In this document: in pieces, positions 1,905 through 27,940 of the stretch
How positions within the stretch are numbered: position 1 is the first letter of the stretch
Layout: the number at the start of each line of letters is the position of its first letter
From: an uncultured Gammaproteobacteria bacterium
GTDB lineage: Bacteria > Patescibacteriota > Patescibacteriia > UBA1558 > GWA2-36-10
Reading direction: 5' to 3'
Assembly (NCBI GenBank): GCA_964633905.1
Contig: CAZWIT010000003.1
Coordinates: 3,193-67,192 of the forward strand
Length of the DNA: 64,000 bases
The notes under the pieces: generated by a model
Seen by the model: only the letters and a program-made list of their open reading frames with translations
Told to the model about the DNA's origin: nothing
Database searches by the model: none
Position numbers and translations under genes: made by a program

Positions 1905-2981
1905 TTAGTTTGGTTTGCAAACAACACCTTCTTCATTACGAGGACGGCAATAATCATAACGACCATCTCTAATTGAGCAACAATAGAAATCTCCAATTGC
2001 ATTACCGGCTGCACAGTCTAAATTAGTAACACAAGGAACATCAGTTATTTTTTTACAATCTTTAGATTCATAAGGATTATTGATTTCTATTGATTTTAAA
2101 CTAATGCCACAAATAGCACTAAAAGTTTGTCCGCTTAAAGTTTGCCTACCATAACAAATATTAGAGCGACAAGAATCGGCCGTTGCATAAGAGGCACAAC
2201 CATCATTATCATGATTCATACTAACATAAACTGATTTACAATAATCTTCAAGATTTTGCAAAAACAAAGGTCGACATTGGGTATCTTGTCCTAATACCCT
2301 AGTTTCTCGGCAGCTACAACTAGGCTCGATCGAAGAAACACCGTCATAACTACTACCATTGTCAGAACAAGCTGCTACTAAATATTCAACCTGATTAGCT
2401 GGACAACGCTCATAACCTTCGCTAGTAAAATAAATTTCATGAGCACAACCATAACCACTACTACAATCGCTATCTACTCTGCAAACATTTAAATCTTTGA
2501 CATCTATTTTGTCCATAATTTCAGTCAATGGCTTGAAGGTTACTAAATTTACGGAAATTTGAGCTAAAAGTAAATAACCACCAAATAAAAAAGCTAAACC
2601 AATCAAGGTGGTACTAACCGTTTCTTTGGCCATAGCGATCTTTGAAGCATTACCAGCTGCCATCAACCATTGCCAAGCGCCATAAACCAACATAAACATT
2701 GCAAAAGCGCCGGCAATGACACCAGCATAACGATAAATAGCCTTAATATACAAAGCCAAAGAATCCGGCCTAATTTCTATGACCCCATTTTTCACAAACT
2801 GACTGCCAGGTATACTAATATTTGGTCTATACTTGATATAATCTATAGCTAAAGCCGAGCTAGCACTGAGCGTAAAAATACCTAAACATAATAAAAATAA
2901 GATTAGATATTTTTTAGATTTTAAAATATTTTTTATTTTCATAAAATTGATTATGGGCCAGTATAGTAAAAATGCCACCAT
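1905..2981 (-). CDS. Membrane protein with a VirB2/TrbC-like two-helix hydrophobic hairpin and a Cys-rich C-terminal ectodomain (paralog A)
   Basis: N-terminal signal/TM segment. Core AGVIAGAFAMFMLVYGAWQWLMAAGNASKIAMAKETVSTTLIGLAFLFGGYLLLAQI is two TM helices joined by a short polar loop, as in conjugative pilins. More than 25 Cys follow in the last ~200 aa. The core is identical to the neighbouring paralog. Confidence 0.45.
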   Translation of the reverse strand: MVAFLLYWPIINFMKIKNILKSKKYLILFLLCLGIFTLSASSALAIDYIKYRPNISIPGSQFVKNGVIEIRPDSLALYIKAIYRYAGVIAGAFAMFMLVYGAWQWLMAAGNASKIAMAKETVSTTLIGLAFLFGGYLLLAQISVNLVTFKPLTEIMDKIDVKDLNVCRVDSDCSSGYGCAHEIYFTSEGYERCPANQVEYLVAACSDNGSSYDGVSSIEPSCSCRETRVLGQDTQCRPLFLQNLEDYCKSVYVSMNHDNDGCASYATADSCRSNICYGRQTLSGQTFSAICGISLKSIEINNPYESKDCKKITDVPCVTNLDCAAGNAIGDFYCCSIRDGRYDYCRPRNEEGVVCKPN

Positions 2982-4171
2982 TCAGAGGGAATGGTGCCGC
3001 CAAAACCAGTATCAGCCATTTTTTGACGTAAAAGTTTTTCGCCTCTGATCAATTTAGCAGTACAAGGGGCAACGGGGCGGTTGACATCCTGATTAAGGCA
3101 ATTGTAAGACTTATCTAAACAAGATCCGCCGTTACAACTGCAAGTATCAATGCCCTCAACAGTATTAATATAACATACATCTACCGCCTTACCATCCATA
3201 TGCTTTGGAATAGGTGGCTCACAGCTAGGAGCAGCTGCTTCATTACATTCTCCATTACAACTAGCTGTACAATTCTTATAGCAATTGTATAACTGTTCTT
3301 GTTTGGCATAGCTACGAAAAGCGCTTTTGATAATTATACTTTCTCCTTGTCCTAATTGTATTCCCTGTAGAGCCTGCCAAGCTTTAGGCACTAAACGTGC
3401 ATCCGAAGTGGAAACACGATCAATAATAATATTACCTCCAATTACTACCATATTTACTAAACCATTACCATCTTCTAGAGCACAACGTTTACTACTAGTA
3501 GCACTTGGTAAAGGCACGCAAGAACCACTAGCTGGTTGGTCAGCACTTTCAGCAATTGCTAACCAAGTGCAATAATTGTCTTCACAAATTTCTTTACTAG
3601 TAAAAGCACTACAATCTTCAGCAATAGAAACATCTTTGACTTGCAAAGCCTTAAAATTTACTAAATTAGAAGAAATTTGAGCTAAGAGCAAATAACTGCC
3701 AAATAAAAAAGCTAAACCAATCAAGGTGGTACTAACCGTTTCTTTGGCCATAGCGATCTTTGAAGCATTACCAGCTGCCATCAACCATTGCCAAGCGCCA
3801 TAAACCAACATAAACATTGCAAAAGCGCCGGCAATGACACCAGCATAGTTATAAATCGCTCTTATGTATTTAGCCAAAGACTCACCATTAATTCTATACT
3901 CAATATGTTTTTCGCCTGTTTTTTTATTTTCTACTTCTACTTTTTCAGTAAAAATTTTATCCATGCCTGGGATAAAAATATTTGGCCAAAAATATAAAGA
4001 ATCTTTTTGCTTGGCCTGCAGTTCTTCGGCTGTCGGCGTGTCTACTAGCGTACTGCCAGGCTCAGCTGGAACAAATCCTTGCGCTAAAACTTTTGGTAAA
4101 GCAAAAATAAAATTAATACCTAATATTATTAGCACTAAAAAACTAAGTATTATTTTTTTAATAAAAAACAT
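2951..4171 (-). CDS. Membrane protein with a VirB2/TrbC-like helical hairpin and a divergent Cys-rich C-terminal ectodomain (paralog B)
   Basis: Same core helical hairpin as 1905-2981, with a perfectly identical 147-bp nt stretch. The N-terminal region and the Cys-rich C-terminus differ. Confidence 0.45.
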   Translation of the reverse strand: MFFIKKIILSFLVLIILGINFIFALPKVLAQGFVPAEPGSTLVDTPTAEELQAKQKDSLYFWPNIFIPGMDKIFTEKVEVENKKTGEKHIEYRINGESLAKYIRAIYNYAGVIAGAFAMFMLVYGAWQWLMAAGNASKIAMAKETVSTTLIGLAFLFGSYLLLAQISSNLVNFKALQVKDVSIAEDCSAFTSKEICEDNYCTWLAIAESADQPASGSCVPLPSATSSKRCALEDGNGLVNMVVIGGNIIIDRVSTSDARLVPKAWQALQGIQLGQGESIIIKSAFRSYAKQEQLYNCYKNCTASCNGECNEAAAPSCEPPIPKHMDGKAVDVCYINTVEGIDTCSCNGGSCLDKSYNCLNQDVNRPVAPCTAKLIRGEKLLRQKMADTGFGGTIPSEWWHFYYTGP

Positions 4172-4182
4172 TTATAAATATT

Positions 4183-5403: not shown

Positions 5404-5450
5404 AAACCCATATTACTTAAAATTTGATAATAAATTCTGAAATCAATTTG

Positions 5451-5996
5451 TTAATCTGGCAATAAATTCTTAAACCAATTTGTGAAAGTATCCCATATCT
5501 CCTGAACCAGAAATGAAGGGTCGGTTAACATTCTTATGCCCAATCCTAAAATAGCAATAATGATAATAATCAAAGCAAAAAGTAGAAGACTAACAATAGC
5601 CCAAAGTCCCATTTCTAAACCACTCAATTTTGGTATCAAAGGATTGCCTAATAAATTACCAACTATTATTTGAATAGTCCAAGTAATATAAGTAACTATT
5701 AATAATACCAAAGTGGCACTACAAGCTATATTAAAAATACGCAAAGAGCTTTTAGCAGCAAACTCCCTAACCCTTTTCTCCACCTCCTCTTTTACTTGCT
5801 TCTTCATCTTTTCCTGCAACATATCTGAACTATCACTTTGACGGAAGCGATCTAACAAACGCTTGCGATACTGTTCGTTCTGATTTTGCTTATCTAACTC
5901 AACTGGATCAAAAGATTCTGCTGGCGCTTGATAATTAGCCCCTGTTCTATCAGCAAATAACTCTCTACGATATTGATTTGGTAAGGTTTGTGCCAT
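5451..5996 (-). CDS. Small membrane protein: charged N-terminus and two or three C-terminal TM helices (T4SS-locus component)
   Basis: Hydrophobic helices LVLLIVTYITWTIQIIVGNL and LWAIVSLLLFALIIIIIAILGLGI. Located inside the T4SS-like gene block. Confidence 0.3.
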   Translation of the reverse strand: MAQTLPNQYRRELFADRTGANYQAPAESFDPVELDKQNQNEQYRKRLLDRFRQSDSSDMLQEKMKKQVKEEVEKRVREFAAKSSLRIFNIACSATLVLLIVTYITWTIQIIVGNLLGNPLIPKLSGLEMGLWAIVSLLLFALIIIIIAILGLGIRMLTDPSFLVQEIWDTFTNWFKNLLPD

Positions 5997-5998
5997 GT

Positions 5999-6559
5999 TT
6001 ATTTTTTATCCTGCCACCAAGCAGCATCAACTAGCCACTTGCCATTTGACTTTATTAAATCAAACTTAATATCTTGATAATATACTACTTGGGATAAATC
6101 AGTTTTAGTTTCAATTCTCTGAGTTTTGACAGTAATCACAGCACTATCTTCTGACCACTCATCAATAACACTAGAAATACTTTTCGTGCTAATACCATTA
6201 TAATTAGGCTGTTTTTCTCCTAGCTCAATACTACTCAAATATTTATTCATACTTTTAGTGCCCAAAGGAGCTAGTTCCTTCAAATTAACGCCTAGCTGAT
6301 CAGTGGACCAACTGCCAAATCTTTCTGCATAATTTTTGGCTAAATTAACGGCTGATAATTCATCGCTATTTAGAGCAGCCGGTAAATTTGGATCAAAATC
6401 AGCGTTGGCGCTAGGCGGAATAAATTTTGGCACTTCATTAGTATTGGTATTATTGATAGGTCTAAAAACATCCATTGAACGCCAAGCCCAAAATAGAAGT
6501 GCTAAAACCACTATAATGATAACTGCGATAATAATTTTCTTTCTTTTTTGTTGATCCAT
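5999..6559 (-). CDS. N-terminally anchored extracytoplasmic protein, possibly a VirB8-like (NTF2-fold) component
   Basis: A single N-terminal TM helix (IIIAVIIIVVLALLFWAW) and a ~150-aa soluble domain. The position just downstream of VirB4 matches where VirB8-like genes sit. The fold assignment is a guess. Confidence 0.25.
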   Translation of the reverse strand: MDQQKRKKIIIAVIIIVVLALLFWAWRSMDVFRPINNTNTNEVPKFIPPSANADFDPNLPAALNSDELSAVNLAKNYAERFGSWSTDQLGVNLKELAPLGTKSMNKYLSSIELGEKQPNYNGISTKSISSVIDEWSEDSAVITVKTQRIETKTDLSQVVYYQDIKFDLIKSNGKWLVDAAWWQDKK

Positions 6560-6581
6560 ATATTTTTATTATTTCCTTATT

Positions 6582-8501
6582 TTAAGCATGTTCGGCTTCA
6601 GCCATCATAGTTTCTTCAAATTCTTTTTTAGCCTCTTCAATCTCAAGCAACTGTCTCGGATCAGAAGTAATTACCTGATGTTCTGTATAAGAAGCTTGAA
6701 TTTTTATAGCCGCATGTTTAGCCCCAGCAAAAAAGATACCCTCACCCACACCAGATTCTAACAATAAATATTTTTCACCTTCGGTTAACATGAAGGTTTT
6801 TTGAATCAAATTAATAGCTGCTGGCGACTGTTTGAGTAACAATTGCATTGAAGAATTGGTAACAATAGCATTACCAAAAGGCGAAGTTAAAAAGTCATTA
6901 ACATCCTGAGTAATAGTCGTTACTCCTAAATAATATTTACGGCAACGTTTAACTAGTGCAAACATGAATTTAGCACTATCTTCATGACGCATCATAATCC
7001 AAGCCTCATCTACTACCAACATTCTCTTCTTCATTTCGCTACGAATAATATTCCAGATATAATTCATAATGACATACATAGCAATTGGACGTAATTCATC
7101 TTCTAAATCGCGAATACAAAATACTATCAACTGATTATTAACCTTAACGTTGGTGGGACTGTTAAACAAACCTGAAAAAGTACCTTGCGTATATTTTTTA
7201 ATACGCAAAGCCATGTCCTCACCACCTTCCATACTAGATAATATTTCTTCTAAATCAGACATCAAGGGTGGCTGAATATTAGTCAAATCACTGGCTGGAG
7301 TAATATCTTTTTTAGCATAAGTTTCGAGTAGCGCTCGATCAAGCAATGAATCTTCAACATTAGTAATGTCTCCAATCATCAAACGAATCAAACCCTTTAA
7401 AGTAATCACGGCGCTACGCAAAATATCCTCTGCTTTTGTATCCCCTCCCACTCCCCTAGGCAAATCAAAAGGATTAAGTTTACTTTCCGAATTTAAAGAA
7501 ACATTAATATAAGCGCCATTTACTGCCTCTGACAAATGTTGATACTCATTTTCTGGGTCAACAATAATTACATCAGTACCCAACATCAGAGAGCGTAATA
7601 CTTCGAGTTTTATAGCATAACTTTTACCAGCGCCAGAAGTAGCAAATACTACCATATTGGCATTTTGCAAACTAAAACGATCAAACAAAATTAAACTATT
7701 ATTGTGGCGATTAATACCATACAAAATACCATCATCAGAAGTAAGTTCTGAAGATACAAAAGGAAAAGAAGAAGCAATCGGTGAGCTGTTCATGTTAGTG
7801 GTAATAGCCAGCTCATCATTACCTAATGGCAAAGTTGAATTAAAGCCTTGCTCCGACTGGAAAAAAGCTCTTCGTGTATAGATCAATTGTGTGCCTAAAA
7901 TATTTTCAATTCTATCAGATGCTAAGTCCAGCTCTTTTAAATCTTTGGCGTAAATAGAAACATACAAAGCAAATTGGAAAAATTTTTCCGTACCTTGACT
8001 CAAAGAGTCACGCAAAGCTTCAATATCCCTTAGGGCAGTTTCAGCAATTGGATCACGAGGAGCTCCTTTTTCATGATCAGCAATAATCTGAGCTTCCATG
8101 GTACCGACTTTATTACGCAACTGTTTTAAGACAATATTAATAGCTAAAGGATAAAAAAACATACTAATATCCAAAGTCAGACTCTCATTGATGATTGGAG
8201 CAAACCAGCCAATAGTAACATAACGTGGATAAGTCACCACAAAAATAGTACGAACATATAAATCGTTAAGTTGTAAACATTTACTTTCTACTTTAAAAGC
8301 AGCCGGAGCAATAATATCACGAACCGAAACTATGCCCTCTCGAAAAACTTTTTCAGCTTCCAATAATTCTTTTTCTTTTTCTAACTTTGCTTTTTGGTCT
8401 GGTTGACCCTTTAAAGCAGCCATCTGCTCTTCGACTTCAGCAGCTGATTTTTTTTCTAAGCTAGCCTGTTTTATTTTATTGGCTTCAAACATTGGTTTCA
8501 A
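6582..8501 (-). CDS. virB4: Type IV secretion ATPase VirB4/TrbE family (C-terminal 639-aa portion, ATPase core)
   Basis: Walker A in VVFATSGAGKSYAIK, Walker B in LVVDEAWIM, and the overall VirB4/CagE arrangement. Overlaps the upstream N-domain ORF by 17 nt. Confidence 0.75.
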   Translation of the reverse strand: MKPMFEANKIKQASLEKKSAAEVEEQMAALKGQPDQKAKLEKEKELLEAEKVFREGIVSVRDIIAPAAFKVESKCLQLNDLYVRTIFVVTYPRYVTIGWFAPIINESLTLDISMFFYPLAINIVLKQLRNKVGTMEAQIIADHEKGAPRDPIAETALRDIEALRDSLSQGTEKFFQFALYVSIYAKDLKELDLASDRIENILGTQLIYTRRAFFQSEQGFNSTLPLGNDELAITTNMNSSPIASSFPFVSSELTSDDGILYGINRHNNSLILFDRFSLQNANMVVFATSGAGKSYAIKLEVLRSLMLGTDVIIVDPENEYQHLSEAVNGAYINVSLNSESKLNPFDLPRGVGGDTKAEDILRSAVITLKGLIRLMIGDITNVEDSLLDRALLETYAKKDITPASDLTNIQPPLMSDLEEILSSMEGGEDMALRIKKYTQGTFSGLFNSPTNVKVNNQLIVFCIRDLEDELRPIAMYVIMNYIWNIIRSEMKKRMLVVDEAWIMMRHEDSAKFMFALVKRCRKYYLGVTTITQDVNDFLTSPFGNAIVTNSSMQLLLKQSPAAINLIQKTFMLTEGEKYLLLESGVGEGIFFAGAKHAAIKIQASYTEHQVITSDPRQLLEIEEAKKEFEETMMAEAEHA

Positions 8502-9171
8502 CGTTTAGTTTATTTATGTCCTCTAGCGGTTGTTTTTGAAACATACTAGGATTATAACTATTGTAATATAATTCGATTAGAGCTTGCGTATTCAAACGTT
8601 GGCTTCTTAAGCCCATTGAACTTAAGCCTGATTCAATAAAATCACAACGTTTATTCAACTGGGAGTTAAATTCTTCAAAACGTTTGCGGCTTAAACGCAC
8701 TACTTTAGCTGTAGAAAAAACAGCCCCAAAACGACTAGAAAATTTGCGGCCCTTATCAGCTATCGGGCTATAAGGAATAATAATATAAAACTTTTTACTC
8801 ATAATTTTTTCTAGAGTCAAAAGTTCTTCCACAAATTGCCTATAATCTGCCGTTTGCATGCGCAGCAACTCATTGGTTTGTTCTTTTTCCATCTTTCTGA
8901 GACGTTGAAAATAATCATCAATATTAAGAGGCCTAGACTGAATCATAATTTGCAAAGGATAGTCCAAGGTGTTTAAAAAACCTACATAACTACTAATGAT
9001 AGCCGCTTGTTCGTCTTCAGCTTTTAAATCAAAATTGATCGAAGAAACAAGTAGCACACCTCTGACTGAGCCATCATTTAAAACAACCATATCCTCTCTT
9101 ATTTCTGCGATATCCAAAAATCTCTGAGTAGAGGTATTGGGACGATTACCGGCTAATTTTTTATTACGCAT
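8485..9171 (-). CDS. VirB4 N-terminal domain as a separate ORF (or a frameshifted VirB4 5' part)
   Basis: FLDIAEIREDMVVLNDGSVRGVLLVSSINFDLKAEDEQAAIISSYVGFLNTLDYPLQIMIQS matches the conserved N-terminus of Gram-positive-type VirB4 proteins. The 17-nt out-of-frame overlap with the ATPase ORF is noted. Confidence 0.55.
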   Translation of the reverse strand: MRNKKLAGNRPNTSTQRFLDIAEIREDMVVLNDGSVRGVLLVSSINFDLKAEDEQAAIISSYVGFLNTLDYPLQIMIQSRPLNIDDYFQRLRKMEKEQTNELLRMQTADYRQFVEELLTLEKIMSKKFYIIIPYSPIADKGRKFSSRFGAVFSTAKVVRLSRKRFEEFNSQLNKRCDFIESGLSSMGLRSQRLNTQALIELYYNSYNPSMFQKQPLEDINKLNVETNV

Positions 9172-9173
9172 AT

Positions 9174-9641
9174 TTATTTTTTATTTATTGCAGAATTATT
9201 AATAATGTTGGCATCCATTTCACCCTTATAAACACCGCCGGTATCAATAATCAAAGACAACTCTGATAATTTTTTATTAGGCAATAAGCTTTTGTTTATA
9301 ATAGGCGCCTCCGCTACCACGCCTTCGCCTTTAATTTTAAATTCTTCTACTTTGATATATTCTTTACGCCAAATACGAATTTTAGGGCGCTTAATCGTTT
9401 GAATGACATTTAATAAAAATAAATGAAAATTCACTCCATTTATTTTCACAAAAGCAAAAACCACTACGAATAAAACAATTAAGCCTGTTTGCGTCAAAAA
9501 TAAAGCAAAATCAGAAAGCTTGTAACTTAGAGCAATGAGCAAACCACCTGATAAAACAATAATAAACTGTCGGACAGTAATTGGCCCCCAGATTTTATCT
9601 TCAGCATCAATAAATTGTGGTACGATAAATCTATTCTGCAT
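9174..9641 (-). CDS. VirB3/PrgI-like small membrane protein
   Basis: 155 aa with two N-terminal TM helices, immediately upstream of VirB4 as in Gram-positive conjugation loci. Confidence 0.45.
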   Translation of the reverse strand: MQNRFIVPQFIDAEDKIWGPITVRQFIIVLSGGLLIALSYKLSDFALFLTQTGLIVLFVVVFAFVKINGVNFHLFLLNVIQTIKRPKIRIWRKEYIKVEEFKIKGEGVVAEAPIINKSLLPNKKLSELSLIIDTGGVYKGEMDANIINNSAINKK

Positions 9642-9644
9642 TTT

Positions 9645-10985
9645 TTAAAATCGTAATAATTTATTTAAATCACCAATGGTATTAAACTCTTCTAAGGTCA
9701 AAACTTGTTCACCTGTCTGTGTGCGTTTGCCAATTAAATTGGAAATTTCTTGACCCTGCATCAAACTGTTAGCCCCTAATTCCAAATATTGTTGATAAAC
9801 AGGACTCTGGCGCCAGGCTGCAATACCAGCTGCCTTTTTGCTCACTGAATCTTTTTCTAAAATAGCAATCTTTTCGTAAATTCTTTGTGCTCTAGAACTA
9901 GCATCAATACCTAGACGACGAAAATTATCAATGCTCATATTAGCTAATTCATCAACCGGACCAACTAAAACGTGTTTTACTGGCACTTTAGCGGGAGCCG
10001 GCGCTTGAGTAATTACATCGTGCAATTTAGCTTTAGCTGTATTTACATTTTGTGGCCTAATTACCTTTGGTAAACTAGGCGAACTGGCTATAGTTGTCTC
10101 TTTTTCTACTTCTTTGACTGGCTCAATAAGCGGTGCTGCTTTTGGCTCTGAGGCCACAACTGGCTTAATGTCTTTGTTTTCAGGAATAGACTCTTGATTA
10201 ATAACAGGCGCTTCGCTTTTGATTATCGGATCTGCTGGCTTGACTGGCCTTGTTTCTGGCATAGCAATCACTGGTGCCAGCACTGGCACAAAATCTGTTT
10301 TTAAAATAGCAACATTCTTTGGTTTTATTTCCAGCTTGGCAAAAGACTCTTTAATGCTATTTTTATGATCTATTTCATTAGCCTTAATAACTAGGCCTCC
10401 CTCTTTTTCAATATTAGCTTTAATGGTTTTAACAAGTGATAAAATAATATCGATGATTTTAGCGTCTATTATTTTATTATTTACAGTAAGCTTACTTAAA
10501 TATTCTCTAACAATAATGCTGTTCTTACGATTACGAAAAAAATCATACAATAAATCAGAAAATAATTGCCGATTATATTGATCTAGATTCAAAGTTTGTT
10601 TTTCTAGGAGCTTGTTGACTATTTTTTCTAAACTATATTTTTTACTATCATCAACAGCTGTTTTTATTGCTGCCTCCTGCAAATGTCTCTCGTCATCTGG
10701 ATGAAAAGCATGCTTAGCCTTATCTCGTGGCTTACCACCTAAACTAAGTAGATAAAAACTATCGTCTTTAGGAGCTACATAAATAGTCGGCAAAATATTT
10801 TCCGCTATTTCAATATCGTCTGACGCAGAATTACTTACTGCCGAAGCATCAGGAACTGTCACCATTACGTCTTGAGCCTGGTGCCAAGACTGTAGTTTAC
10901 CAGTCTGATCCTTGACTAACAGATCATCAAGCCAAGAACTATTTCGAGCTGAAGCATTATTGTTATTATTCAATCCTGATGGCAT
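9645..10985 (-). CDS. Hypothetical protein with a Pro/Lys-rich central linker, first gene of the VirB3/VirB4 block
   Basis: No TM segment. Central low-complexity PxxP/KP-rich segment. No recognisable catalytic motif. Confidence 0.3.
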   Translation of the reverse strand: MPSGLNNNNNASARNSSWLDDLLVKDQTGKLQSWHQAQDVMVTVPDASAVSNSASDDIEIAENILPTIYVAPKDDSFYLLSLGGKPRDKAKHAFHPDDERHLQEAAIKTAVDDSKKYSLEKIVNKLLEKQTLNLDQYNRQLFSDLLYDFFRNRKNSIIVREYLSKLTVNNKIIDAKIIDIILSLVKTIKANIEKEGGLVIKANEIDHKNSIKESFAKLEIKPKNVAILKTDFVPVLAPVIAMPETRPVKPADPIIKSEAPVINQESIPENKDIKPVVASEPKAAPLIEPVKEVEKETTIASSPSLPKVIRPQNVNTAKAKLHDVITQAPAPAKVPVKHVLVGPVDELANMSIDNFRRLGIDASSRAQRIYEKIAILEKDSVSKKAAGIAAWRQSPVYQQYLELGANSLMQGQEISNLIGKRTQTGEQVLTLEEFNTIGDLNKLLRF

Positions 10986-11009
10986 TATATTTTAGCTATT
11001 ACGCTCTTC

Positions 11010-11141: not shown

Positions 11142-11170
11142 TAATTATAACATATTTTAGCCTCCATCGC

Positions 11171-11205: not shown

Positions 11206-11238
11206 AGTGTCCAGTTTTTATATTGTATATATTAAATT

Positions 11239-11796
11239 TTAAGCTCTAGAGACGTATTCACCACTTTCAGTATTGATAATTATCTGATCGTTGGCTTTGA
11301 CAAACATCGGCGTTCTAATTTCTAAACCGTTTTCAAGGGTTACTACCTTAGTAACTGCCCCGGCACTATTACCTTTTACTCCTTCTGGAGCAGATACAAC
11401 TGTAAAAGTCATCTTAGTTGGTAATTCAATGCTGATTGGCTTATTATTAAAAATCAAAACATCTACTTCTTGGCCTTCTTTTAAATACTTTACAGCATCG
11501 CCAAGATTATCTTTATCAAATTGAAATTGTTCAAAATCTTCATTATTCATGAAAAAATAATCATCCCCTTGTTGATAAAGAAAATTAGCCTTAGAGTGAG
11601 CCATATCAGCTAATTCTACAGTGTCTGAACCAGAAAAAGTTTTTTCTAGAGTATTACCGCTAATCAAATTTTTCAACTTAGTCTTAACAACTGCCCCGCC
11701 TCTGGCTACTTTAATGTGTTGATTAAAGACAACCTGATAAGGCTCATCATTAACGACTAAGACTTTGTTTAATTTTAAATCACTTAATGATCCCAT
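11239..11796 (-). CDS. efp: Translation elongation factor P
   Basis: 185 aa. The N-terminal KOW-like region and OB domains look typical of EF-P. Adjacent to a ribosomal protein operon. Confidence 0.8.
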   Translation of the reverse strand: MGSLSDLKLNKVLVVNDEPYQVVFNQHIKVARGGAVVKTKLKNLISGNTLEKTFSGSDTVELADMAHSKANFLYQQGDDYFFMNNEDFEQFQFDKDNLGDAVKYLKEGQEVDVLIFNNKPISIELPTKMTFTVVSAPEGVKGNSAGAVTKVVTLENGLEIRTPMFVKANDQIIINTESGEYVSRA

Positions 11797-11800
11797 AACT

Positions 11801-12019
11801 TTATCTGGCTACATAAGGTAAAATGGCCATAAAACGAGCGCGTTTAATGGCTTGAGCTAATTTACGTTGATGTTTAGAACAAACACCATTACGTCTTTTG
11901 GGAGTAATCTTGCCATAAGAAGAAATAAATCTCTGCAAGGACTGCCAATCTTTATAATCAATTTCATCAACATTATTTACACAAAAGAAACAATGTTTTT
12001 TATCTAATTTAACATGCAT
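11801..12019 (-). CDS. rpsR: 30S ribosomal protein S18
   Basis: 72 aa. KITPKRRNGVCSKHQRKLAQAIKRARFMAILPY is characteristic of S18. Confidence 0.85.
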   Translation of the reverse strand: MHVKLDKKHCFFCVNNVDEIDYKDWQSLQRFISSYGKITPKRRNGVCSKHQRKLAQAIKRARFMAILPYVAR

Positions 12020-12039
12020 AAAATTAAAATAATAAATTT

Positions 12040-12510
12040 TTAAAAAGGAATATCTTCTAAACTAATTTCCTCTTCGCCAATATTTGATCCACCATCCATA
12101 GGCGGTACTTGGCTATAATCATTAGAGCGCTTTGGAGCACTGCTAGCATTATCACTAAAATTACTAGCCCCGTTACCAGTACCCATCTTATCTAACATAA
12201 TCATATTGTCAGCAATGATTTCAGTGCGATAACGTTTGATGCCATTAGGATCATCCCAAGAACGGGTTTGCAAACGACCTTCAATATAAATCTTGCTACC
12301 CTTTTTGACGTATTGATTGACAATTTCAGCAAGTCTACGCCAAGCTACAATATTATGAAATTCAGCTTTTTCTTGCTTTTGGCCAGCTGCATCCTTCCAA
12401 GTAAAATTAGTAGCAATCGCAAAAGAAGTAACATTTTGACCACTGGGAGTTGTGCGCATCTCTGGATCACGAACAACGTTACCAATAATCATAACCTTGT
12501 TTAAATTCAT
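12040..12510 (-). CDS. ssb: Single-stranded DNA-binding protein
   Basis: OB-fold N-terminus MNLNKVMIIGNVVRDPEMR, a Gly/Asn-rich tail and a C-terminal DIPF motif. Confidence 0.85.
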   Translation of the reverse strand: MNLNKVMIIGNVVRDPEMRTTPSGQNVTSFAIATNFTWKDAAGQKQEKAEFHNIVAWRRLAEIVNQYVKKGSKIYIEGRLQTRSWDDPNGIKRYRTEIIADNMIMLDKMGTGNGASNFSDNASSAPKRSNDYSQVPPMDGGSNIGEEEISLEDIPF

Positions 12511-12520
12511 ATATTTACTA

Positions 12521-13045
12521 TTAATCTAAATTAGGTTCCTTAGTTAAAATTTCATCCAATTTTTTATCAATATCGTCCAAACTTAAAGTTGGCTGACCTT
12601 TGGACTCTTCTACTTTCTTAGTAGCTGAAGCAGTACTTCTGTGACTAGTTGTTCTAGCAGTAGTAGTAGTGGAGGTTTTTTTAGGACGACGAGTTAAGAC
12701 CTCTGGCTTACTAGCGTTCATTAACTTAGCAATTAAATTAGCAGGAGTTGGTTTATCCTTTTTTAATACTAAGTGACGTAAAATTTCTGGATTATGTTTT
12801 AAACTTAAATCCAGTTGTTTTAAATTAGCCTTATCTTCAGTCTCTAGGCTAAAATCTAAAAAAACATAAAAACCATGTTTTTGTGTTTTAATGGGATAAC
12901 TTAGTTTGCGACGACCCAAAAGGTGCCAATCGCCTACTATTTTGGCGCCGATATTATTCAAATATTCGGCTACTGTAGTCTGAATGCGTGCCTGATCATT
13001 TTCTGGCACCACTGGACTAACAATAAAAGATAGTTCGTAGTACAT
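12521..13045 (-). CDS. rpsF: 30S ribosomal protein S6 with a long charged C-terminal extension
   Basis: MYYELSFIVSP... is typical S6 over the first ~100 aa, followed by a Thr/Ser/Lys-rich tail. The rpsF-ssb-rpsR order is conserved. Confidence 0.8.
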   Translation of the reverse strand: MYYELSFIVSPVVPENDQARIQTTVAEYLNNIGAKIVGDWHLLGRRKLSYPIKTQKHGFYVFLDFSLETEDKANLKQLDLSLKHNPEILRHLVLKKDKPTPANLIAKLMNASKPEVLTRRPKKTSTTTTARTTSHRSTASATKKVEESKGQPTLSLDDIDKKLDEILTKEPNLD

Positions 13046-13224
13046 TATTATGACTATTAATTACCCTAGTTTTTAATAATTAGGGATCCTTTAAAATTAA
13101 ATTTAAAGAATGTGGTTAATCAAATTGTCCAATAATTTGGACTTCGAAACTCTACCATAAAAATTATACTAAGTCAAGACTAGCTGTCATTGCTTAAAAA
13201 GCATTTTTTTACTATTATTTATAC

Positions 13225-14412
13225 ATGTCAAAATATATTTTCATCTTAGGCCAAGCCAGTGATTTAAGTAGAGCTGAAATTTTTAGTCTCTACAAAAATA
13301 TTACTAATATTAGCGAAAATATCCTAATGTTAGAGGCTAAACTAGACCCTAAAATAACTTTAAAAAAACTAGGTGGCACTATTAAAATTGCCGAGTATTT
13401 AAAAACTATTGACGATTTAGAAGAGCTGACAGCTACTTGGTGGTCTGAGCAGCTTAATATTTCTGAAGATAAAGGTAAAATCAACTTTGGCTTTAGTCTC
13501 TACAACGATCACCAAAAAAATTATCAAAAAATTACTAAAATTGCTCTAGCTACTAAAAAAAATTTAAAAATAAAAAACCTTAGTTGCCGCTTAGTAGTTG
13601 GACGCGAAGCTATTTTATCATCTGTCATTGTAGCTAAAAATAAATTAATCGACCGCGAATTACTAATTATCAAAGATAATGGTAAATATATTTTAGCCCA
13701 AACTAAGGCTGTGCAAGATTTTGAAGATTATAGCCAAAGAGATATCAATCGCCCCATCAGAGACGACCGCTCTGGCATGTTGCCAATCAAAGTTGCTCAA
13801 ATGATGTTAAATTTAGCTGGCACAAAACTAACTGAAAATATACTTGATCCTTTTTGTGGTTCAGGCACAATTTTACAGGAAGCAGCTTTAGCGGGTTACC
13901 CCACTATCTATGGCAGTGATATTAGTGCTGACACCACCCGCTCTGCGCAAGAAAATATTAACTGGCTACAAAAACAACTAAATAAAACTAGCCAAATTAT
14001 TCTAAAAACTACTAGCGTCGAAAATTTAAGCCAGCATTTCAAAAAACAATCAATCGACTTAATAGTTAGTGAGCCCTTTATGGGCGAGGCTCGCTTGATA
14101 AAACAAAATCACCGTCCCGAGACAATTTATGATATTGCTCAAGATCTAAGCCAATTGTATATTAAGGCTTTTCAACAATTTAAAATTGTTTTAAAACCAA
14201 ACGCTAAAATTATTTTTATATTTCCTATTTTTAAAATTGGTAAAGAATACATTTATACTTTACCACAAGCTCAAATCAAAAAAATTGGTTTTAAGCCAAT
14301 TTTTAGTGCTGCTACTTTAAATTATCCTTCCAAAAATGGCAACATTATCTATGCTCGACCTGAACAAATAGTTCAAAGAGAAATTGCTATTTATTCTATC
14401 CAAGCTAATTGA
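13225..14412 (+). CDS. THUMP-domain class I SAM-dependent RNA methyltransferase (Trm11/RlmL-like)
   Basis: SAM motif I DPFCGSGTILQEAALAG and an N-terminal THUMP-like region. Confidence 0.55.
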   Translation: MSKYIFILGQASDLSRAEIFSLYKNITNISENILMLEAKLDPKITLKKLGGTIKIAEYLKTIDDLEELTATWWSEQLNISEDKGKINFGFSLYNDHQKNYQKITKIALATKKNLKIKNLSCRLVVGREAILSSVIVAKNKLIDRELLIIKDNGKYILAQTKAVQDFEDYSQRDINRPIRDDRSGMLPIKVAQMMLNLAGTKLTENILDPFCGSGTILQEAALAGYPTIYGSDISADTTRSAQENINWLQKQLNKTSQIILKTTSVENLSQHFKKQSIDLIVSEPFMGEARLIKQNHRPETIYDIAQDLSQLYIKAFQQFKIVLKPNAKIIFIFPIFKIGKEYIYTLPQAQIKKIGFKPIFSAATLNYPSKNGNIIYARPEQIVQREIAIYSIQAN

Positions 14413-15626
14413 TTATTGATCAGGTGCAGACCGCGCCACTTTAAAACACCCTCTTTTTGGTCAAGATAAACAACTTGTCCAGATTTGGGCCAAATATTAG
14501 TTAGATAAAAAGCCGCTACAGTTGATTCATCTTCGGCGAGCTTCATTTTCTCTTCCAAAACCATTTCTAAAAATAAACGCCGACTAATCAGCTTATCCTG
14601 ATTATTGTCTAACCAAGCAGCTAAACTATTACCATAACGAACAGTAATAAATCTTTTTAAGATATTACGAAAACGATTATCCTCTATAAGCAGAGCATCT
14701 AACACTTTTTTTTCAGCTAAAACCTTTAGACAGGTTAAAATTTTAGTTCTATCTTGCACACCTAAAGCTTGCCACAAAACATCTCTTAATTTAAAAATAT
14801 CATTACCAGCCTCTGACATAATAAAATCGGTTGGCAAAACCACGCTTTCAATTTGTTTAAGATTTTTTTCTAGATTTTTAACAGCTGCTTCCAAGTCAAC
14901 TTCTTTGGATTTATTAACATTTTGATCTTCAATAACTTTAGCAGTCAAAAATCCGTTAAGCAATTGCCACCATAAAATAACATTATCATCATAAGAAAGT
15001 AAAACATTGCGCAGACTTTCTTTTTCTTCACTACTCAATTCTAAAGCATTGGGAGCTTTAGCTAAATATTGAGCCCTTTGTAAAGAATTATGATAGCCAG
15101 CTCCTAAAAAGTGAACGTAATCCTGCAGCCAATTATCAAGCGAAGGCAAAAGCATACGGCCATCTTGGCTGTATATTTTTTTACCGGATAAGCGTAAATC
15201 TTTAAAATCATCATACTGCAAAAGAAGCTGCCTAACCATGCCCTTGATCTCTCCTGGAAAAGACTTTGTTTGATTTACAGAGCCCTTTAAATGCTGCGGT
15301 AAGGGCACTTTGCCGCCTAAGCGCAAAATTAAACGGTCAACACTAAATAAATAATCTTGAATTGGCCATAATAATTTAGTGGCAATTTGCAAAGATAATA
15401 AACGTAAATCTAAAATTTCTGCCCTTGGTATTTTAGCTAAACGCTGAGGCAAATCTAAAACATCTATTTTTTTCAAAAATATTTGGTCCTCTAGCTCACT
15501 GATAAAATCTAGTTGATCAGCATCCAGACTAAACTGCGAAACTAATTCTTGATTAATATTATCTAATTTGTACCAGACAAAATCTTGAATTGCTTCTGGC
15601 AATGTTAACCATTGCTCTCTGTCCAT
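14391..15626 (-). CDS. Hypothetical cytoplasmic protein, last gene of the giant-protein/VirB6 operon
   Basis: 411 aa with no TM segment. It sits 24 bp downstream of the VirB6-like gene. Confidence 0.3.
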   Translation of the reverse strand: MDREQWLTLPEAIQDFVWYKLDNINQELVSQFSLDADQLDFISELEDQIFLKKIDVLDLPQRLAKIPRAEILDLRLLSLQIATKLLWPIQDYLFSVDRLILRLGGKVPLPQHLKGSVNQTKSFPGEIKGMVRQLLLQYDDFKDLRLSGKKIYSQDGRMLLPSLDNWLQDYVHFLGAGYHNSLQRAQYLAKAPNALELSSEEKESLRNVLLSYDDNVILWWQLLNGFLTAKVIEDQNVNKSKEVDLEAAVKNLEKNLKQIESVVLPTDFIMSEAGNDIFKLRDVLWQALGVQDRTKILTCLKVLAEKKVLDALLIEDNRFRNILKRFITVRYGNSLAAWLDNNQDKLISRRLFLEMVLEEKMKLAEDESTVAAFYLTNIWPKSGQVVYLDQKEGVLKWRGLHLINNQLAWIE

Positions 15627-15649: not shown

Positions 15650-18220
15650 TTAAGCTTCTTCGTCTTCAGCGCTACTATCCTCAGCGCTACTTGTTGTAGA
15701 TTTTTTAGATGCAACTGTACCAGTTTCTTCAAACTCGGCAAAAGCAGCCTTTAAACCTTCATCACTAGGAGCACTCTTTTTCTTAGAGCCAGACTTGCTA
15801 GCATCTGGGCCAGTTTTTGGATAGGCTGTATTGCGCACAATACTGTTAACAGCTAAGCCTGATTTTTCAAGAATACCCACAAAAGTTTGCAACATTTTCT
15901 GGTCTTTATTGGCTAACATAAATTGCTTTTGTTGTTCGCTGCTAGCTCGTCTAGCATATTCAACCATTAATTTATAATCATCTGACCCCTCAACATTCAT
16001 CTCGGGCATATCAGCTAAATTTAAATTACCAAAATCAGCCTTAGCAACTACGGAATCCCACAGTTTCTTACGTAAACCATTATTAACATCTTCAATAGCT
16101 GTTTTTTCTTCATCTGTTCTAGCACTAGCTAAGGCCCTACTAACAACTTCCTCAATCCTATCTGTAACATCACCCGGATTAAAGACACCAGCCACGCTAG
16201 CCATCTTAACAGCTGCATTATCAGCATTAGCTTTGATATCTAAATTGCCAGCTGCATCCGTGGCGATATTGCCATCTTTGTCTCTTTTTATCACATCTGA
16301 ACTATCATCTTTAATTGCATCAATATCTACCTTCATTTCTTTCATGGCAGCTTTGGCCGCTTTTTGAGCAGCTTTGTCCATCTTTTTCAAAGCATCAACA
16401 ATTTCTGTATGCGCCACTTTACTAGCTGGATCTAACAAAGAACTTATCAAATGCTTAAAGCCTTCGGTGGTACTACCATCTTCATCAGTAATACTCTCGG
16501 ATCTTAAGTTTTCTAAAACTTTAGCACCTTTATCTTTGACTGCTTCATCAGCTTCAGCAGCATTATAAGCATTAGCATAGCGCGATTGTAAATTTTTAAT
16601 TGCTTCTTCATTGCCACCCTTACGCAAAGTTTCAACAATAGTAGTAACCTGCTGCGGATCCAACTTTCTACCTGGTTTACCCATTCTCTCTGCTAAAGCA
16701 TATTCATAATCAGTGGAGCCACCAGCTGTCATTATTCTTTCAGCCAAACGTCTTCTTTCATCAGCAGGAGTAAGCGCCATTGGCCGTCGGCGCGATCCAT
16801 AGCCACCAGCACCAGCCCGAGAACGCAAATATTCTTCGCGATACCTTTCTGGTATAGCTGCTAATTCTCTCTTTAATCTTTCATCCCTTCTACGCTCATC
16901 AGCACCACGTATCTGCATTGCCCCGCTTTGTAAAAATCTACCAGCGCCAGGCACTTTACCTAAGGCCCTTGCCTTACCTTTTTCATCAATAGCGAATCCA
17001 GCCAATTGACCACTCAATTTACCTTTAACAGCGCCTGCGCGAGCACTAATCTCACCACCCAACATCTTATAGCCACCAGAATAAGCTGATTCAAAACGGC
17101 CAATGGTTTGACGAGCAACCCCTTTATTAACATTACTAGCATAAGATTCCAGCTTACCTAAGCCTGATCGTGCTATACCAGCGCCAGCTGTGCCTGATTG
17201 TGAGGCAAATTTTAAACCAGAAACAAGTAAGGCTATTGCTACAATATAATTTAAAAAAGAATCAACGGTAGTGCCTTTGGTTGGGCCACCACCACCTAAA
17301 CCTTCTTCAATAGTAGAATTATTACTACCAGCTCTTACTTCTGTTTTTTTCAAATTAGCCCTCAAATCCTCCTTTACTATTTTTGTAGAAACATCGCCGT
17401 TGCCAGTAATAGTAAAAGTCAACCACAAGAAAAAAGCTAAAGCTGGACCAATTATCAAACTCTTAGTTAATTCTTGCTCCCATTCATTATAATATTTTTT
17501 AGTTTGCGGATAAGCATAAGCTAAAAATGCTAAAGGCGATAAAATAGTTAAAATCCAAAGAGTAACAATACGCAATACCAGCATCAATAAAAAGATGCCA
17601 ATCAAAACTACTGCTACGATCAACATAATACCGCCCAAAAATACGGCTGATATAAAAGAAGACCAAGTAACACCAGCGCCATCACGATTTAAAGAGTCTA
17701 AATTCAAGGTATTATGAAGACCTAAAGCTGATTGGAAACTACCAGCGGCCACATCTTTCCAAGCCGCCACAAAAGTCAACATAATAATCTGGACAAAATC
17801 AACTGCCAAACCAATAATAGTGCGACTAAAATTAATTAAAATTGCCATTATCAAAATACTGGAAAGCAAGTTTTTATAACCATAACCTTTAAGTTGTAAT
17901 ATTGTACCAAAAGACATAATAAGCAAAAGGACAATAAAAAACATATTGGCCAAATCACGTAAAATTTTCCAGGTTTCAACTACTTTTTCTTCACGGACAA
18001 AATCGCCATATTGAGCAACAATAGGTAATAAAACCATTTCTAGTTGCATAATCAAAACAAAAGGCCAAAATAAAGTCCAGTAAATAATACTGCCAACAAA
18101 CTCTGCCAATTTGTCAATCATACCAGCTGAAGCGCCTAATGGTAATAAAAGTAATATTAAAAATATTGCTATAATACCGACCTTTTTAGGTGAAGAAAGT
18201 GATAAAGATTTTATGGTCAT
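15650..18220 (-). CDS. VirB6/TrbL-like polytopic membrane protein with a long charged low-complexity C-terminal extension
   Basis: At least six TM helices in the first ~300 aa, then a Gly/Ala/Lys/Glu-rich ~550-aa tail. This is the typical arrangement of extended VirB6 homologs. Confidence 0.55.
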   Translation of the reverse strand: MTIKSLSLSSPKKVGIIAIFLILLLLPLGASAGMIDKLAEFVGSIIYWTLFWPFVLIMQLEMVLLPIVAQYGDFVREEKVVETWKILRDLANMFFIVLLLIMSFGTILQLKGYGYKNLLSSILIMAILINFSRTIIGLAVDFVQIIMLTFVAAWKDVAAGSFQSALGLHNTLNLDSLNRDGAGVTWSSFISAVFLGGIMLIVAVVLIGIFLLMLVLRIVTLWILTILSPLAFLAYAYPQTKKYYNEWEQELTKSLIIGPALAFFLWLTFTITGNGDVSTKIVKEDLRANLKKTEVRAGSNNSTIEEGLGGGGPTKGTTVDSFLNYIVAIALLVSGLKFASQSGTAGAGIARSGLGKLESYASNVNKGVARQTIGRFESAYSGGYKMLGGEISARAGAVKGKLSGQLAGFAIDEKGKARALGKVPGAGRFLQSGAMQIRGADERRRDERLKRELAAIPERYREEYLRSRAGAGGYGSRRRPMALTPADERRRLAERIMTAGGSTDYEYALAERMGKPGRKLDPQQVTTIVETLRKGGNEEAIKNLQSRYANAYNAAEADEAVKDKGAKVLENLRSESITDEDGSTTEGFKHLISSLLDPASKVAHTEIVDALKKMDKAAQKAAKAAMKEMKVDIDAIKDDSSDVIKRDKDGNIATDAAGNLDIKANADNAAVKMASVAGVFNPGDVTDRIEEVVSRALASARTDEEKTAIEDVNNGLRKKLWDSVVAKADFGNLNLADMPEMNVEGSDDYKLMVEYARRASSEQQKQFMLANKDQKMLQTFVGILEKSGLAVNSIVRNTAYPKTGPDASKSGSKKKSAPSDEGLKAAFAEFEETGTVASKKSTTSSAEDSSAEDEEA

Positions 18221-18239
18221 AATATAATAAAATTATAAG

Positions 18240-27113: not shown

Positions 27114-27133
27114 AAGAAATATTTTACTTTTTA

Positions 27134-27940
27134 TTACTTACCAATTAATTGGTCCCTAATAGTTATTAATTCTGTTTCCGATAAAGCTTTGATTTTATCT
27201 ATTTCCGCATCAGGCTGGCTTAATAAAAAAGTCCGCACTTGTTCTGGTGTGGTAGTAGCAGTCCAGGCATCACTAGGTACAATTTGGCTTTCTGCCACAA
27301 TGGATAAAATATTTAATAAATCTTCATCAGTTAAATTTGCTAACTCAGCTTCGGTCATACCTTGTGCTAATAAAAATTTACGAAATTCATTAGCTGTTGC
27401 CTGTTCTAAAGTCAAATCCTTATTAAGGGATAAATCATTTAAAATATTAGCTAGTTTTGTATCAGGAGTAATTAGTTTTAATAAACCGCACTCTTCTCCA
27501 AAAGGACAAAGCGGATCATCTCCTTTGACCACTTCATCACCGTCTTTAATACCATCGCTATCAGTATCATCCAAAAACATACTAGTATAATATTGATAAA
27601 GTTCAGCAAAATCAGTTAAACCATCCTGGTCTGTATCTTTATTTTTTAATTCAGCAATAGTTTGCTCTTGGCTATCTTGATTGTTTACTAATTGTTCCTT
27701 TAAAAAATCTGGCAAGTCATAGCTTACTGTTTTTTTGAGATTTCGATACCAATAATTAGTTACAAAAACTAAAATTAACAAACTAATTATTGCTAAAGGC
27801 CAAAAAAAGCGATGTCTGCTGGCAACATGGAATTGATTATTTGATAATTTAGTTGACCGTCTAGAGTTATCTTCAGTACCAAGTAAATCTCTAAGGTCTA
27901 GTTCCTCACCAGTATCTATCTGGTATAATTTTTTTGGCAT
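27134..27940 (-). CDS. Single-pass membrane protein with thrombospondin type-3-like Ca-binding repeats
   Basis: TM helix FFWPLAIISLLILVFV. DxDxDG repeats DTDQDGLTDFAE and DTDSDGIKDGDE. First gene of the operon containing the giant protein. Confidence 0.45.
   Translation of the reverse strand: MPKKLYQIDTGEELDLRDLLGTEDNSRRSTKLSNNQFHVASRHRFFWPLAIISLLILVFVTNYWYRNLKKTVSYDLPDFLKEQLVNNQDSQEQTIAELKNKDTDQDGLTDFAELYQYYTSMFLDDTDSDGIKDGDEVVKGDDPLCPFGEECGLLKLITPDTKLANILNDLSLNKDLTLEQATANEFRKFLLAQGMTEAELANLTDEDLLNILSIVAESQIVPSDAWTATTTPEQVRTFLLSQPDAEIDKIKALSETELITIRDQLIGK

Follow-up and report, generated by a model that had tools for sequence, protein, structure and literature searches.

Type IV secretion systems (T4SS) of Patescibacteria have been described before. 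In a survey of 2,474 virB4 genes (Quiñonero-Coronel et al. 2025, PMC12102498) the Patescibacteria VirB4 clade was related to that of the mating pair formation class FATA (MPF-FATA); TrsD was the most abundant partner, accompanied by PrgI/VirB3 and VirB6, and the few VirB8 homologues came nearly all from the class ABY1. VirB2-like pilins were encoded near virB4, often in arrays, ksgA was abundant near virB4 across classes, and recG lay near the T4SS locus in ABY1. Only 109 relaxases were recorded, 15 of them close to virB4, the type IV coupling protein (T4CP) was usually encoded far from virB4, and no adhesin was reported. Candidatus Southlakia epibionticum ML1 requires its T4SS cluster, with the pilins, for growth as an epibiont (Wang et al. 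2023, PMC10633639). A FEMS review of 2025 (PMC12857230) regards the Patescibacteria T4SS as unique among monoderms for potential pili. The present work concerns a locus at positions 1905-27940, minus strand, of a 64-kb stretch of contig CAZWIT010000003.1 (the window); all coordinates are window positions.

The locus is very probably a chromosomal T4SS of the Patescibacteria type, derived from monoderm MPF-FATA machinery, that would serve contact with a host cell. A preliminary description made from the DNA letters had read it as a non-conjugative T4SS derivative with an undescribed architecture. The first part is right; the second does not hold, since this type of locus has already been reported (PMC10633639, PMC12102498, PMC12857230). 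It is thus no new kind of system, and some of its accessory features are without a published description that we could find.

An open reading frame (ORF) check of 1905-27940 recovered every ORF of the apparatus listed in the preliminary description, with the same positions and strand. The block 1 genes are 2-47 nt apart or overlap; block 2 is tightly packed, as had been noted, with measured gaps of 19-23 nt in place of 20-24 bp.

Block 1
1905-2981, minus strand: pil358, VirB2-like T4SS pilin hairpin with a Cys-rich head of about 200 amino acids (aa); PF18895
2951-4171, minus strand: pil406, pilin hairpin with a Cys-rich VanY/LAS-type (M15) peptidase head (predicted); PF18895 and PF02557
4183-5403, minus strand: prop406, N-terminally anchored extracytoplasmic protein with one N-terminal transmembrane (TM) segment
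5451-5996, minus strand: tm181, by hydropathy a charged N-terminus in the cytoplasm and two TM helices at the C-terminus; sub-threshold family matches
5999-6559, minus strand: tm186, bitopic membrane protein, candidate VirB8/PrgL-like component from position and topology
6582-8501, minus strand: VirB4-type ATPase (C-terminal P-loop part), 639 aa; TraG P-loop 105 bits, AAA_10, DUF87
8485-9171, minus strand: TrsD/TraD-like protein, 228 aa, equivalent of the VirB4 N-terminal domain in a separate gene; NCBIfam TrsD
9174-9641, minus strand: PrgI/VirB3-like protein with two TM segments, 155 aa; Pfam PrgI 39.9 bits (cut-off 27)
9645-10985, minus strand: p446, conserved cytoplasmic protein; Pro-rich linker and, C-terminally, a conserved domain of about 110 aa

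Block 2
14391-15626, minus strand: p411, conserved cytoplasmic protein whose gene immediately follows that of VirB6
15650-18220, minus strand: extended VirB6/TrbL-like polytopic protein, 856 aa; TM domain at about residues 1-340, charged cytoplasmic tail of about 500 aa
18240-27113, minus strand: giant secreted Cys-rich protein, 2957 aa; signal peptide and at least one CBM4/9-type (carbohydrate-binding module) jelly-roll
27134-27940, minus strand: single-pass membrane protein, 268 aa, with two Ca-binding repeats of thrombospondin type 3 (TSP3), encoded directly upstream of the giant gene

The secretion core

The locus holds the features by which T4SS of the Patescibacteria type are recognised: a VirB4 P-loop ATPase, an adjacent TrsD, PrgI, VirB6 and VirB2-like pilins near virB4; within about 71 kb it is also chromosomal, with no relaxase or T4CP close to virB4. 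A relative of the VirB6-like protein was encoded in 457 genome loci, of which 80 were kept and all window proteins mapped onto them; 50 of these had at least 9 kb of sequence downstream of virB6 and 61 at least 6 kb upstream.

The VirB4 protein was 58-86 % identical to its counterpart in 45 Patescibacteria loci, and the PrgI/VirB3-like protein, recognised as such from the outset, was present in 49. The 228-aa protein matched NCBIfam TrsD with an E value of 9e-10 (below NCBI's own 200-bit cut-off) as well as residues 91-233 of a VirB4 model; the TraC N-terminal region was a weak Pfam match, and the precomputed annotation carries a TraC-like Pfam label. A separate TrsD-like ORF of 221-246 aa was found in 48 related loci. 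The preliminary description spoke of a VirB4 split in two ORFs, and a frameshifted or broken virB4 gene was rejected because the two-ORF arrangement of TrsD and VirB4 is kept in these 48 loci as a conserved pair.

The 856-aa protein, with about seven TM helices by hydropathy, had no Pfam match of its own. It had more than 236 homologues, and all the named ones bore the label Patescibacteria, Parcubacteria, Uhrbacteria, Kerfeldbacteria or Komeilibacteria, or just 'bacterium'. A TrbL/VirB6 Pfam match was obtained for 11 of 37 aligned homologues, in two of them above the gathering score, and the matching segment aligned with residues ~85-280 of the window protein. AlphaFold2 modelled residues 1-400 (89-sequence alignment) with pLDDT 80 and pTM 0.73, and the nine best Foldseek matches of this model among 350,542 PDB chains were TrwI/VirB6 of the R388 stalk (E 1.3e-3 to 0.13). 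Judged by its homologues and predicted fold the protein is VirB6, which bears out the earlier assignment.

Downstream of virB4, tm186 is a candidate VirB8-like (NTF2-fold) component, to judge from position and topology. It is conserved directly after virB4 in 24 loci, and its homologues gave weak NTF2-like Pfam matches (NTF2_YvbJ in 3 of 22, best E 0.004); a search of its profile against PDB sequences gave no match.

Comparison with described systems

The cluster of S. epibionticum (SEML1_0006-0019, PMC10633639) and the present locus are both chromosomal, with no relaxase or T4CP nearby. They share VirB4 with an adjacent TrsD-like protein, PrgI, VirB6-like proteins that measure ~850-1100 aa and have a long tail in the cytoplasm (two of about 1000 aa in S. 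epibionticum), PF18895 VirB2-like pilins within the cluster and a cluster-associated peptidoglycan hydrolase activity, which is predicted in our case. The S. epibionticum pilins form an array of six proteins of 103-185 aa, whereas the two pilins of the window measure 358 and 406 aa and bear large Cys-rich heads. Lysozyme and peptidase are encoded by separate genes in S. epibionticum, but the peptidase domain of the window lies inside the pilin pil406. A 1113-aa protein is encoded in S. epibionticum, where counterparts of the 2957-aa Cys-rich CBM protein and the TSP3 protein are absent and p411 and p446 could not be recognised. The window cluster, unlike that of S. epibionticum, is interrupted by ribosomal, ssb and efp genes. 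Its ksgA and recG neighbourhood is that of the Patescibacteria clade in PMC12102498, where ksgA occurs across classes and recG in ABY1.

The MPF-FATA plasmids pGO1/pIP501 and pCF10 have, like the window, a TrsD-type VirB4 partner and no VirB7/9/10 outer-membrane parts. The gene order VirB6...VirB3(PrgI)-TrsD-VirB4-small membrane protein(s) is, as we take it, colinear with that of pGO1/pIP501 (TrsC-TrsD-TrsE) and pCF10 (PrgH-PrgI-PrgJ-PrgK-PrgL). These plasmids encode a relaxase, a T4CP, a VirB1-type glycosidase/CHAP hydrolase and LPXTG adhesins (PrgB) but no VirB2 pilins, whereas in the window the conjugation-specific parts were not found and pilins are present. In comparison with the MPF-T systems (Agrobacterium VirB and R388 Trw, with a VirB2 pilus and a VirB5-VirB6 stalk), the window represents a monoderm apparatus without VirB7/9/10/11 and with head-bearing pilins. 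The protein encoded upstream of VirB6 has about 220 aa in MPF-T and 2957 aa in the window; homology to VirB5 is not demonstrated. We found no published account of the 2200-3200-aa Cys-rich family upstream of VirB6, of p411 and p446 as conserved cytoplasmic partners or of the pilin-VanY fusion.

Two blocks of one system

The two blocks are one system, judging from gene order in related genomes: they belong together because they are contiguous in about 25 of them. In these more distant loci, some named Falkowbacteria or Buchananbacteria, the order giant-virB6-(p411)-p446-prgI-trsD-virB4-tm186 is uninterrupted. About 20 loci, including Komeilibacteria and 'Parcubacteria' metagenome-assembled genomes (MAGs), have the order of the window, ksgA-TSP3-giant-virB6-p411-(methyltransferase, convergent)-rpsF-ssb-efp-p446-prgI-trsD-virB4. 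The genes prgI/trsD/virB4 lie downstream of virB6 in 43 of 50 loci and a giant homologue upstream of it in 52 of 61, so the co-occurrence of the gene set in related genomes, proposed as a check in the preliminary description, was observed. Block 1 is kept to its end in a related MAG (L082, GCA_028718865.1), with the order p446-PrgI-TraC-like-VirB4-183 aa-174 aa-407 aa-pilin (242 aa)-recG (convergent).

Between the blocks stand a housekeeping cassette, which does not belong to the apparatus, and predicted transcription signals.

11239-14412: housekeeping cassette, identified by Pfam, of a plus-strand gene for a UPF0020-type methyltransferase and the minus-strand genes rpsF, ssb, rpsR (11801-12019) and efp
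11205-11182, minus strand: predicted terminator-like hairpin after efp (consensus scan)
11173-11144, minus strand: predicted extended -10 promoter-like site before p446 (consensus scan)

The same consensus scan predicted a promoter-like site before rpsF. The cassette lies between p411 and p446 in this lineage, is inverted in three loci (L047, L071, L075) and is missing from the contiguous loci. The simplest reading of these gene orders would be a single ancestral operon that received the cassette by insertion in this lineage, a polarity proposed here without a species tree.

Pilin-like proteins with Cys-rich heads

Both hairpin proteins, taken for VirB2-like in the preliminary description, exceeded the cut-off (26.6 bits) of the T4SS_pilin family PF18895, pil358 with 27.0 and pil406 with 31.5 bits, the matches covering residues 74-133 and 97-157, respectively. 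Hydropathy and PF18895 indicate a signal peptide and a two-helix hairpin in each; the database annotation of pil358 begins at M14, which gives 345 aa (1905-2942). Both genes lie 2.4-4.7 kb from virB4. The heads are C-terminal and comprise 200-250 aa, and at 358 and 406 aa the proteins are larger than the small mature VirB2/TrbC pilins (~70-130 aa) that polymerise into a helical filament. The C-terminus of a VirB2-type pilin is extracytoplasmic, so the Cys-rich heads would be located outside the cell. The Cys count proposed as a check in the preliminary description gave even numbers for the predicted ectodomains: 16 in pil406 and 20 in pil358, the latter with one more in its signal peptide.

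The hairpin DNA of the two genes is 90 % identical over 240 nt (2526-2765 versus 3644-3883), and the heads are unrelated. That of pil358 also occurs in two database relatives (P0124 and P0126). The pil406 head matched VanY PF02557 (28.2 bits, cut-off 25), with a Peptidase_M15 C-terminal match at residues 378-402; the earlier description of both ectodomains as Cys-rich is correct, but for pil406 it missed the VanY/M15 domain inside. LAS/VanY peptidases are characterised by a SxHxxGxAxD-type zinc motif and an ExxH motif. The pil406 sequence contains RSYAKQ, HMDGKAVD and EWWH, which we take to correspond to the LAS substrate-binding and zinc/catalytic motifs, and by the profile matches and these motifs its head is a predicted VanY/LAS (M15) zinc peptidase. 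A PDB sequence search with the VanY head alone gave no match. The combination of PF18895 and PF02557 was found only in the source organism and one 89 %-identical relative.

A HMMER scan with the hairpin yielded 7,670 cluster representatives (50 % identity) at E ≤ 0.001, and the best 148 of these had a median length of 339 aa and a median of 15 Cys. Close relatives combine a near-identical hairpin with differing heads of 85-250 aa. The fusion of a pilin with a Cys-rich domain had been proposed as undescribed; we found no published description of head-bearing T4SS pilins, but pilin hairpins with Cys-rich extensions are common in databases, not rare.

Four database proteins (P0148, P0204, P0215, P0220) carry 3-6 hairpin modules in one chain of 555-916 aa, resembling tandem pilin fusions. 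In L082 a reverse transcriptase gene (RVT_1, 16426-17826) and a bAvd-like gene stand side by side, at a distance of about 6 kb from the pilin gene of the T4SS; this pair is a hallmark of a diversity-generating retroelement, and nothing equivalent was seen in the window.

The giant protein and the TSP3 protein

The giant protein has one N-terminal hydrophobic segment, a signal peptide, and its ectodomain contains 106 Cys, again an even number, many of them invariant among 19 homologues. The topologies of the preliminary description (pilin hairpins, about seven helices in the VirB6-like protein, two helices for PrgI and a single segment at the N-terminus of the giant protein) all agreed with hydropathy. 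The CBM-like module announced there was also found: CBM_4_9 (PF02018) matched residues 1123-1253 with 30.4 bits (cut-off 25.9), and the same match is precomputed for three giant homologues (P0129, P0131, P0144). In a Foldseek search the low-confidence AlphaFold2 model retrieved CBM4/16/22 at E ≥ 4e-3, a weak hint that includes a possible second module. No internal repeats were detected by BLAST; a short motif, C-x4-8-GC-x2-[YFL], recurs in the protein. Conservation reaches distant relatives for residues 1-1500; the C-terminal half is specific to the lineage, and the segment 2100-2600 varies even among close relatives. A word-indexed homologue search with the protein retrieved 18 proteins, all unnamed.

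The giant gene is separated from virB6 by 19 nt, and the homologues in the 52 loci, of 2200-3200 aa, belong to widely divergent relatives (26-48 % identity). In slots without a giant homologue (L055, L057, L021, L080) other Cys-rich ORFs stand upstream of virB6, for example a 1429-aa protein with 57 Cys (L057, 4869-9158) and a 763-aa protein with 39 Cys (L055, 7512-9803). This points to an exchange of Cys-rich surface proteins in this position.

In MPF-T systems virB5 precedes virB6. In three of 28 members of the giant family the 53-aa model DUF4141 was matched, in all cases below the gathering score (best 23.6 versus 30 bits), over the end of the signal peptide and the mature N-terminus with the motif AQ-x-VV[TS]D; the giant protein of the window has neither this motif nor a DUF4141 match. 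The profile of the giant N-terminus gave no VirB5 structure or other meaningful match in PDB. TraI (DUF4141) of Bacteroides conjugative transposons is encoded beside TraJ, presumably the VirB6 equivalent of these elements, so that in both cases the gene adjoins one of VirB6 type. DUF4141 proteins are small, unlike the giant family of 2200-3200 aa, and the likeness is a lead, not membership.

The 268-aa protein had been described as carrying TSP3 repeats. Two DxDxDG-type motifs are indeed visible, but the TSP3_bac score of 20.7 bits is below the cut-off of 25. In 27 loci its gene is found, with ksgA on one side and the giant gene on the other. A 453-aa protein encoded at 34830-36191 (minus strand), with a bacterial TSP3 repeat above the cut-off (E 8e-8) and otherwise unannotated, may be functionally related to it.

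Large Cys-rich extracellular proteins proposed to act in attachment are known in the Candidate Phyla Radiation (CPR), namely in Peregrinibacteria (Anantharaman et al. 2016, PMC4736985). They resemble the window protein in their very large size, signal peptide and Cys content but have no T4SS link, and the likeness is by description only.

Other proteins of the locus

p446 is always encoded directly upstream of prgI (51 loci) and p411 always adjoins virB6 (31 loci); neither had a family or PDB match (Pfam, NCBIfam, profile against PDB). For prop406 the preliminary description had proposed a TolB-like propeller; a PD40/TolB-like beta-propeller is possible but was left unconfirmed, with no match in Pfam, NCBIfam or, as a single sequence, in PDB. 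A 407-aa homologue occupies the same position in L082 and L083, and in L082 a 174-aa ORF stands in the position of tm181.

Genomic setting

The source organism is a low-GC CPR bacterium with Komeilibacteria and 'Parcubacteria' MAGs as its closest named relatives, which we assume to belong to the GTDB class ABY1. Many MAG records with such a Patescibacteria-type locus (L002, L007, L012 and others) are titled 'uncultured Gammaproteobacteria bacterium', probably a mislabel.

The GC content of the window is low (31-39 %) and similar throughout, with no compositional break at the T4SS locus, which is flanked by ksgA and recG; the recG frame, convergent with the pilin genes, exits the window at its left end. 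The rest of the window, as far as ORFs were scanned, is chromosomal and housekeeping (leuS, infB, pnp, rny, clpP, rpsO, lspA, ksgA, sua5), with six tRNA genes and an M23/LysM peptidase gene; the small ORFs elsewhere in it are also housekeeping. Synteny with ksgA, efp, rpsF and recG is kept across many species, which is not the picture of a mobile element, and recent horizontal acquisition was rejected because of the uniform composition and conserved synteny. Neither VirD4, a relaxase nor VirB9/10/11 was found in the scanned ORFs of the window or in about 6.7 kb past its right end, and no oriT-type or plasmid genes were among the scanned ORFs of the window. A relaxase and VirD4/TcpA beside the MPF genes, as in conjugative T4SS, were not seen among these ORFs. 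The preliminary description is supported in that a T4SS-derived apparatus lies among chromosomal housekeeping genes and has neither a relaxase nor a coupling protein in its vicinity. The label non-conjugative is shown for the window alone; in such genomes T4CP genes are often distant from virB4.

VirB1-like proteins of Patescibacteria often have M23/LysM domains (PMC12102498). In the light of that survey, the T4SS may have a further wall hydrolase in a 475-aa protein with two LysM domains and Peptidase_M23, encoded at 33333-34760 (plus strand) at a distance of about 5 kb from block 2. About 2 kb past the right end of the window a phage-type integrase gene follows rpsO (L084, 5173-5961), succeeded by genes for cytochrome b5, patatin, SdpI-like and HTH proteins; the group may represent a small integrated element, apparently unrelated to the T4SS. 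At 44367-44443 (minus strand) ARAGORN predicted a tRNA-Ile with anticodon TAT, among tRNAs for G-ending codons (CGA, CAG, CGC, CGG, CCC), which may bear on decoding in a reduced genome. A 271-aa Peptidase_C39_2-like papain-fold protease (E 4e-14) is encoded at 53784-54599 (minus strand) with no obvious partner gene nearby.

Working model and alternative explanations

In the proposed model VirB4 with TrsD, PrgI/VirB3, the extended VirB6 and probably the VirB8-like tm186 would form a membrane core. The two VirB2-like hairpins would be inserted via Sec and assembled by this core into a short pilus or stalk, displaying disulfide-rich heads outside the cell, one of them a putative VanY/LAS peptidoglycan peptidase. 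The giant CBM protein and the TSP3 protein, members of the same ancestral operon, would most likely make contact with the host surface or its glycans. The machine would serve an epibiotic lifestyle, in host attachment, local cell-wall remodelling and macromolecule export or import; such a role is probable, rather than conjugation, because no relaxase or coupling protein is encoded nearby. The terms 'surface-structure-building' and 'distal adhesin' of the preliminary description are reasonable inferences.

Several points weigh against this model. The contig measures at least 135 kb, and the search for VirD4 and relaxase genes covered 64 kb of it plus about 7 kb. The VirB8 equivalent is a candidate (tm186), not demonstrated. 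There is no VirB1-type glycosidase in the locus, and the wall hydrolases are limited to the VanY head and the M23/LysM protein about 5 kb away. A subfamily hidden Markov model detected no further pilin genes in the window, short head-less ones included, and polymerisation of head-bearing pilins is sterically questionable. The AlphaFold2 model of giant residues 1-1100 (19 homologues) had a mean pLDDT of 39.6, too poor for a fold assignment. Finally, the epibiotic role is probable by analogy with S. epibionticum, where the genetics bear on essentiality only and the T4SS is not of the ABY1 type.

Another explanation takes pil358 and pil406 for membrane-anchored or T4SS/Sec-released effectors in which the hairpin is only an anchor or export tag. 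Heads of 200-250 aa are hard to pack on a VirB2-type helical filament, one head is enzyme-like, near-identical hairpins with unrelated heads suggest a modular anchor, and the database relatives mostly have large Cys-rich extensions, some with 3-6 hairpins per chain; a 'secreted array' of toxin-like subunits was proposed by McLean et al. 2020 (PMC7427843). The hairpin nevertheless scores above the T4SS_pilin cut-off, TrbC/VirB2 is matched by the paralogues of S. epibionticum as well and such proteins are treated as pilins in PMC12857230 and PMC10633639, and near-identity of the hairpins is equally what co-assembly into one polymer requires. We regard effectors as possible but unlikely. The core might also be an uptake machine like ComB of H. 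pylori, importing host DNA or nucleotides, an idea raised for Saccharibacteria in a 2024 perspective (PMC11665869). T4SS loci of ABY1 often stand beside comF, recG and radA (PMC12102498), and here recG is convergent with the pilin genes, ssb lies inside the locus and no T4CP or relaxase was seen in the window. Uptake would leave the pilin heads and the giant CBM protein unexplained, though, and recG, ssb and efp are housekeeping neighbours, the ssb cassette being missing from many related loci; this function seems to us improbable.

The TSP3 and giant genes could constitute an independent adhesin operon that merely neighbours virB6. No giant homologue stands upstream of virB6 in nine of 61 loci, CPR genomes commonly encode large extracellular proteins rich in Cys (PMC4736985) and S. 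epibionticum has no equivalent of the 2957-aa protein. Against such independence, the close spacing to virB6 is accompanied by a position kept in 52 loci of divergent relatives, the loci without it often hold other Cys-rich ORFs in the same place, and some family members have the sub-threshold N-terminal match to DUF4141/TraI, a T4SS protein encoded beside the VirB6-like TraJ. We therefore hold a separate operon to be quite improbable. A conventional conjugative T4SS on a plasmid or integrated element, its relaxase and T4CP encoded beyond the window, would agree with the homology of the core to MPF-FATA conjugation systems, with the tyrosine integrase gene past the right end, about 38 kb from block 2 (L084), and with relaxases in a few Patescibacteria (PMC12102498). 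But the locus lies among ksgA, leuS, efp, rpsF and recG in a synteny kept across dozens of species with no GC discontinuity, the scanned ORFs of the window hold no relaxase, T4CP, oriT-type or plasmid genes, and just 15 of the 109 relaxases of the survey were close to virB4. A conjugative element is accordingly extremely improbable.

Beyond the Patescibacteria-type T4SS with a role in host contact, a more far-reaching and tentative proposal, in which we place limited confidence, is that the ABY1-type T4SS has been rebuilt as a host-contact organelle, with a disulfide-rich CBM adhesin of 2200-3200 aa in the virB5 position docking on VirB6 and the hairpin as a module for interchangeable heads. 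If true, the adhesin would bind the VirB6 platform through its N-terminus in the manner of VirB5 and TraI, and the filament or stalk itself would carry an active LAS peptidase opening the cell wall of the host (or its own). No published description of a giant adhesin in the virB5 position or of an enzyme-headed pilin module was found.

The T4SS of Patescibacteria is essential in the one species tested, and its substrate, direction and surface structure are open (PMC11665869, PMC12857230). The locus described here shows which genes travel with the core in the ABY1/'Parcubacteria' branch: those of the giant CBM protein, the TSP3 protein, p411, p446 and pilins with variable heads. The giant family provides a concrete candidate adhesin for the Patescibacteria T4SS, and the predicted pilin-peptidase fusion hints that the pilin module may deliver enzymatic heads to the cell surface.

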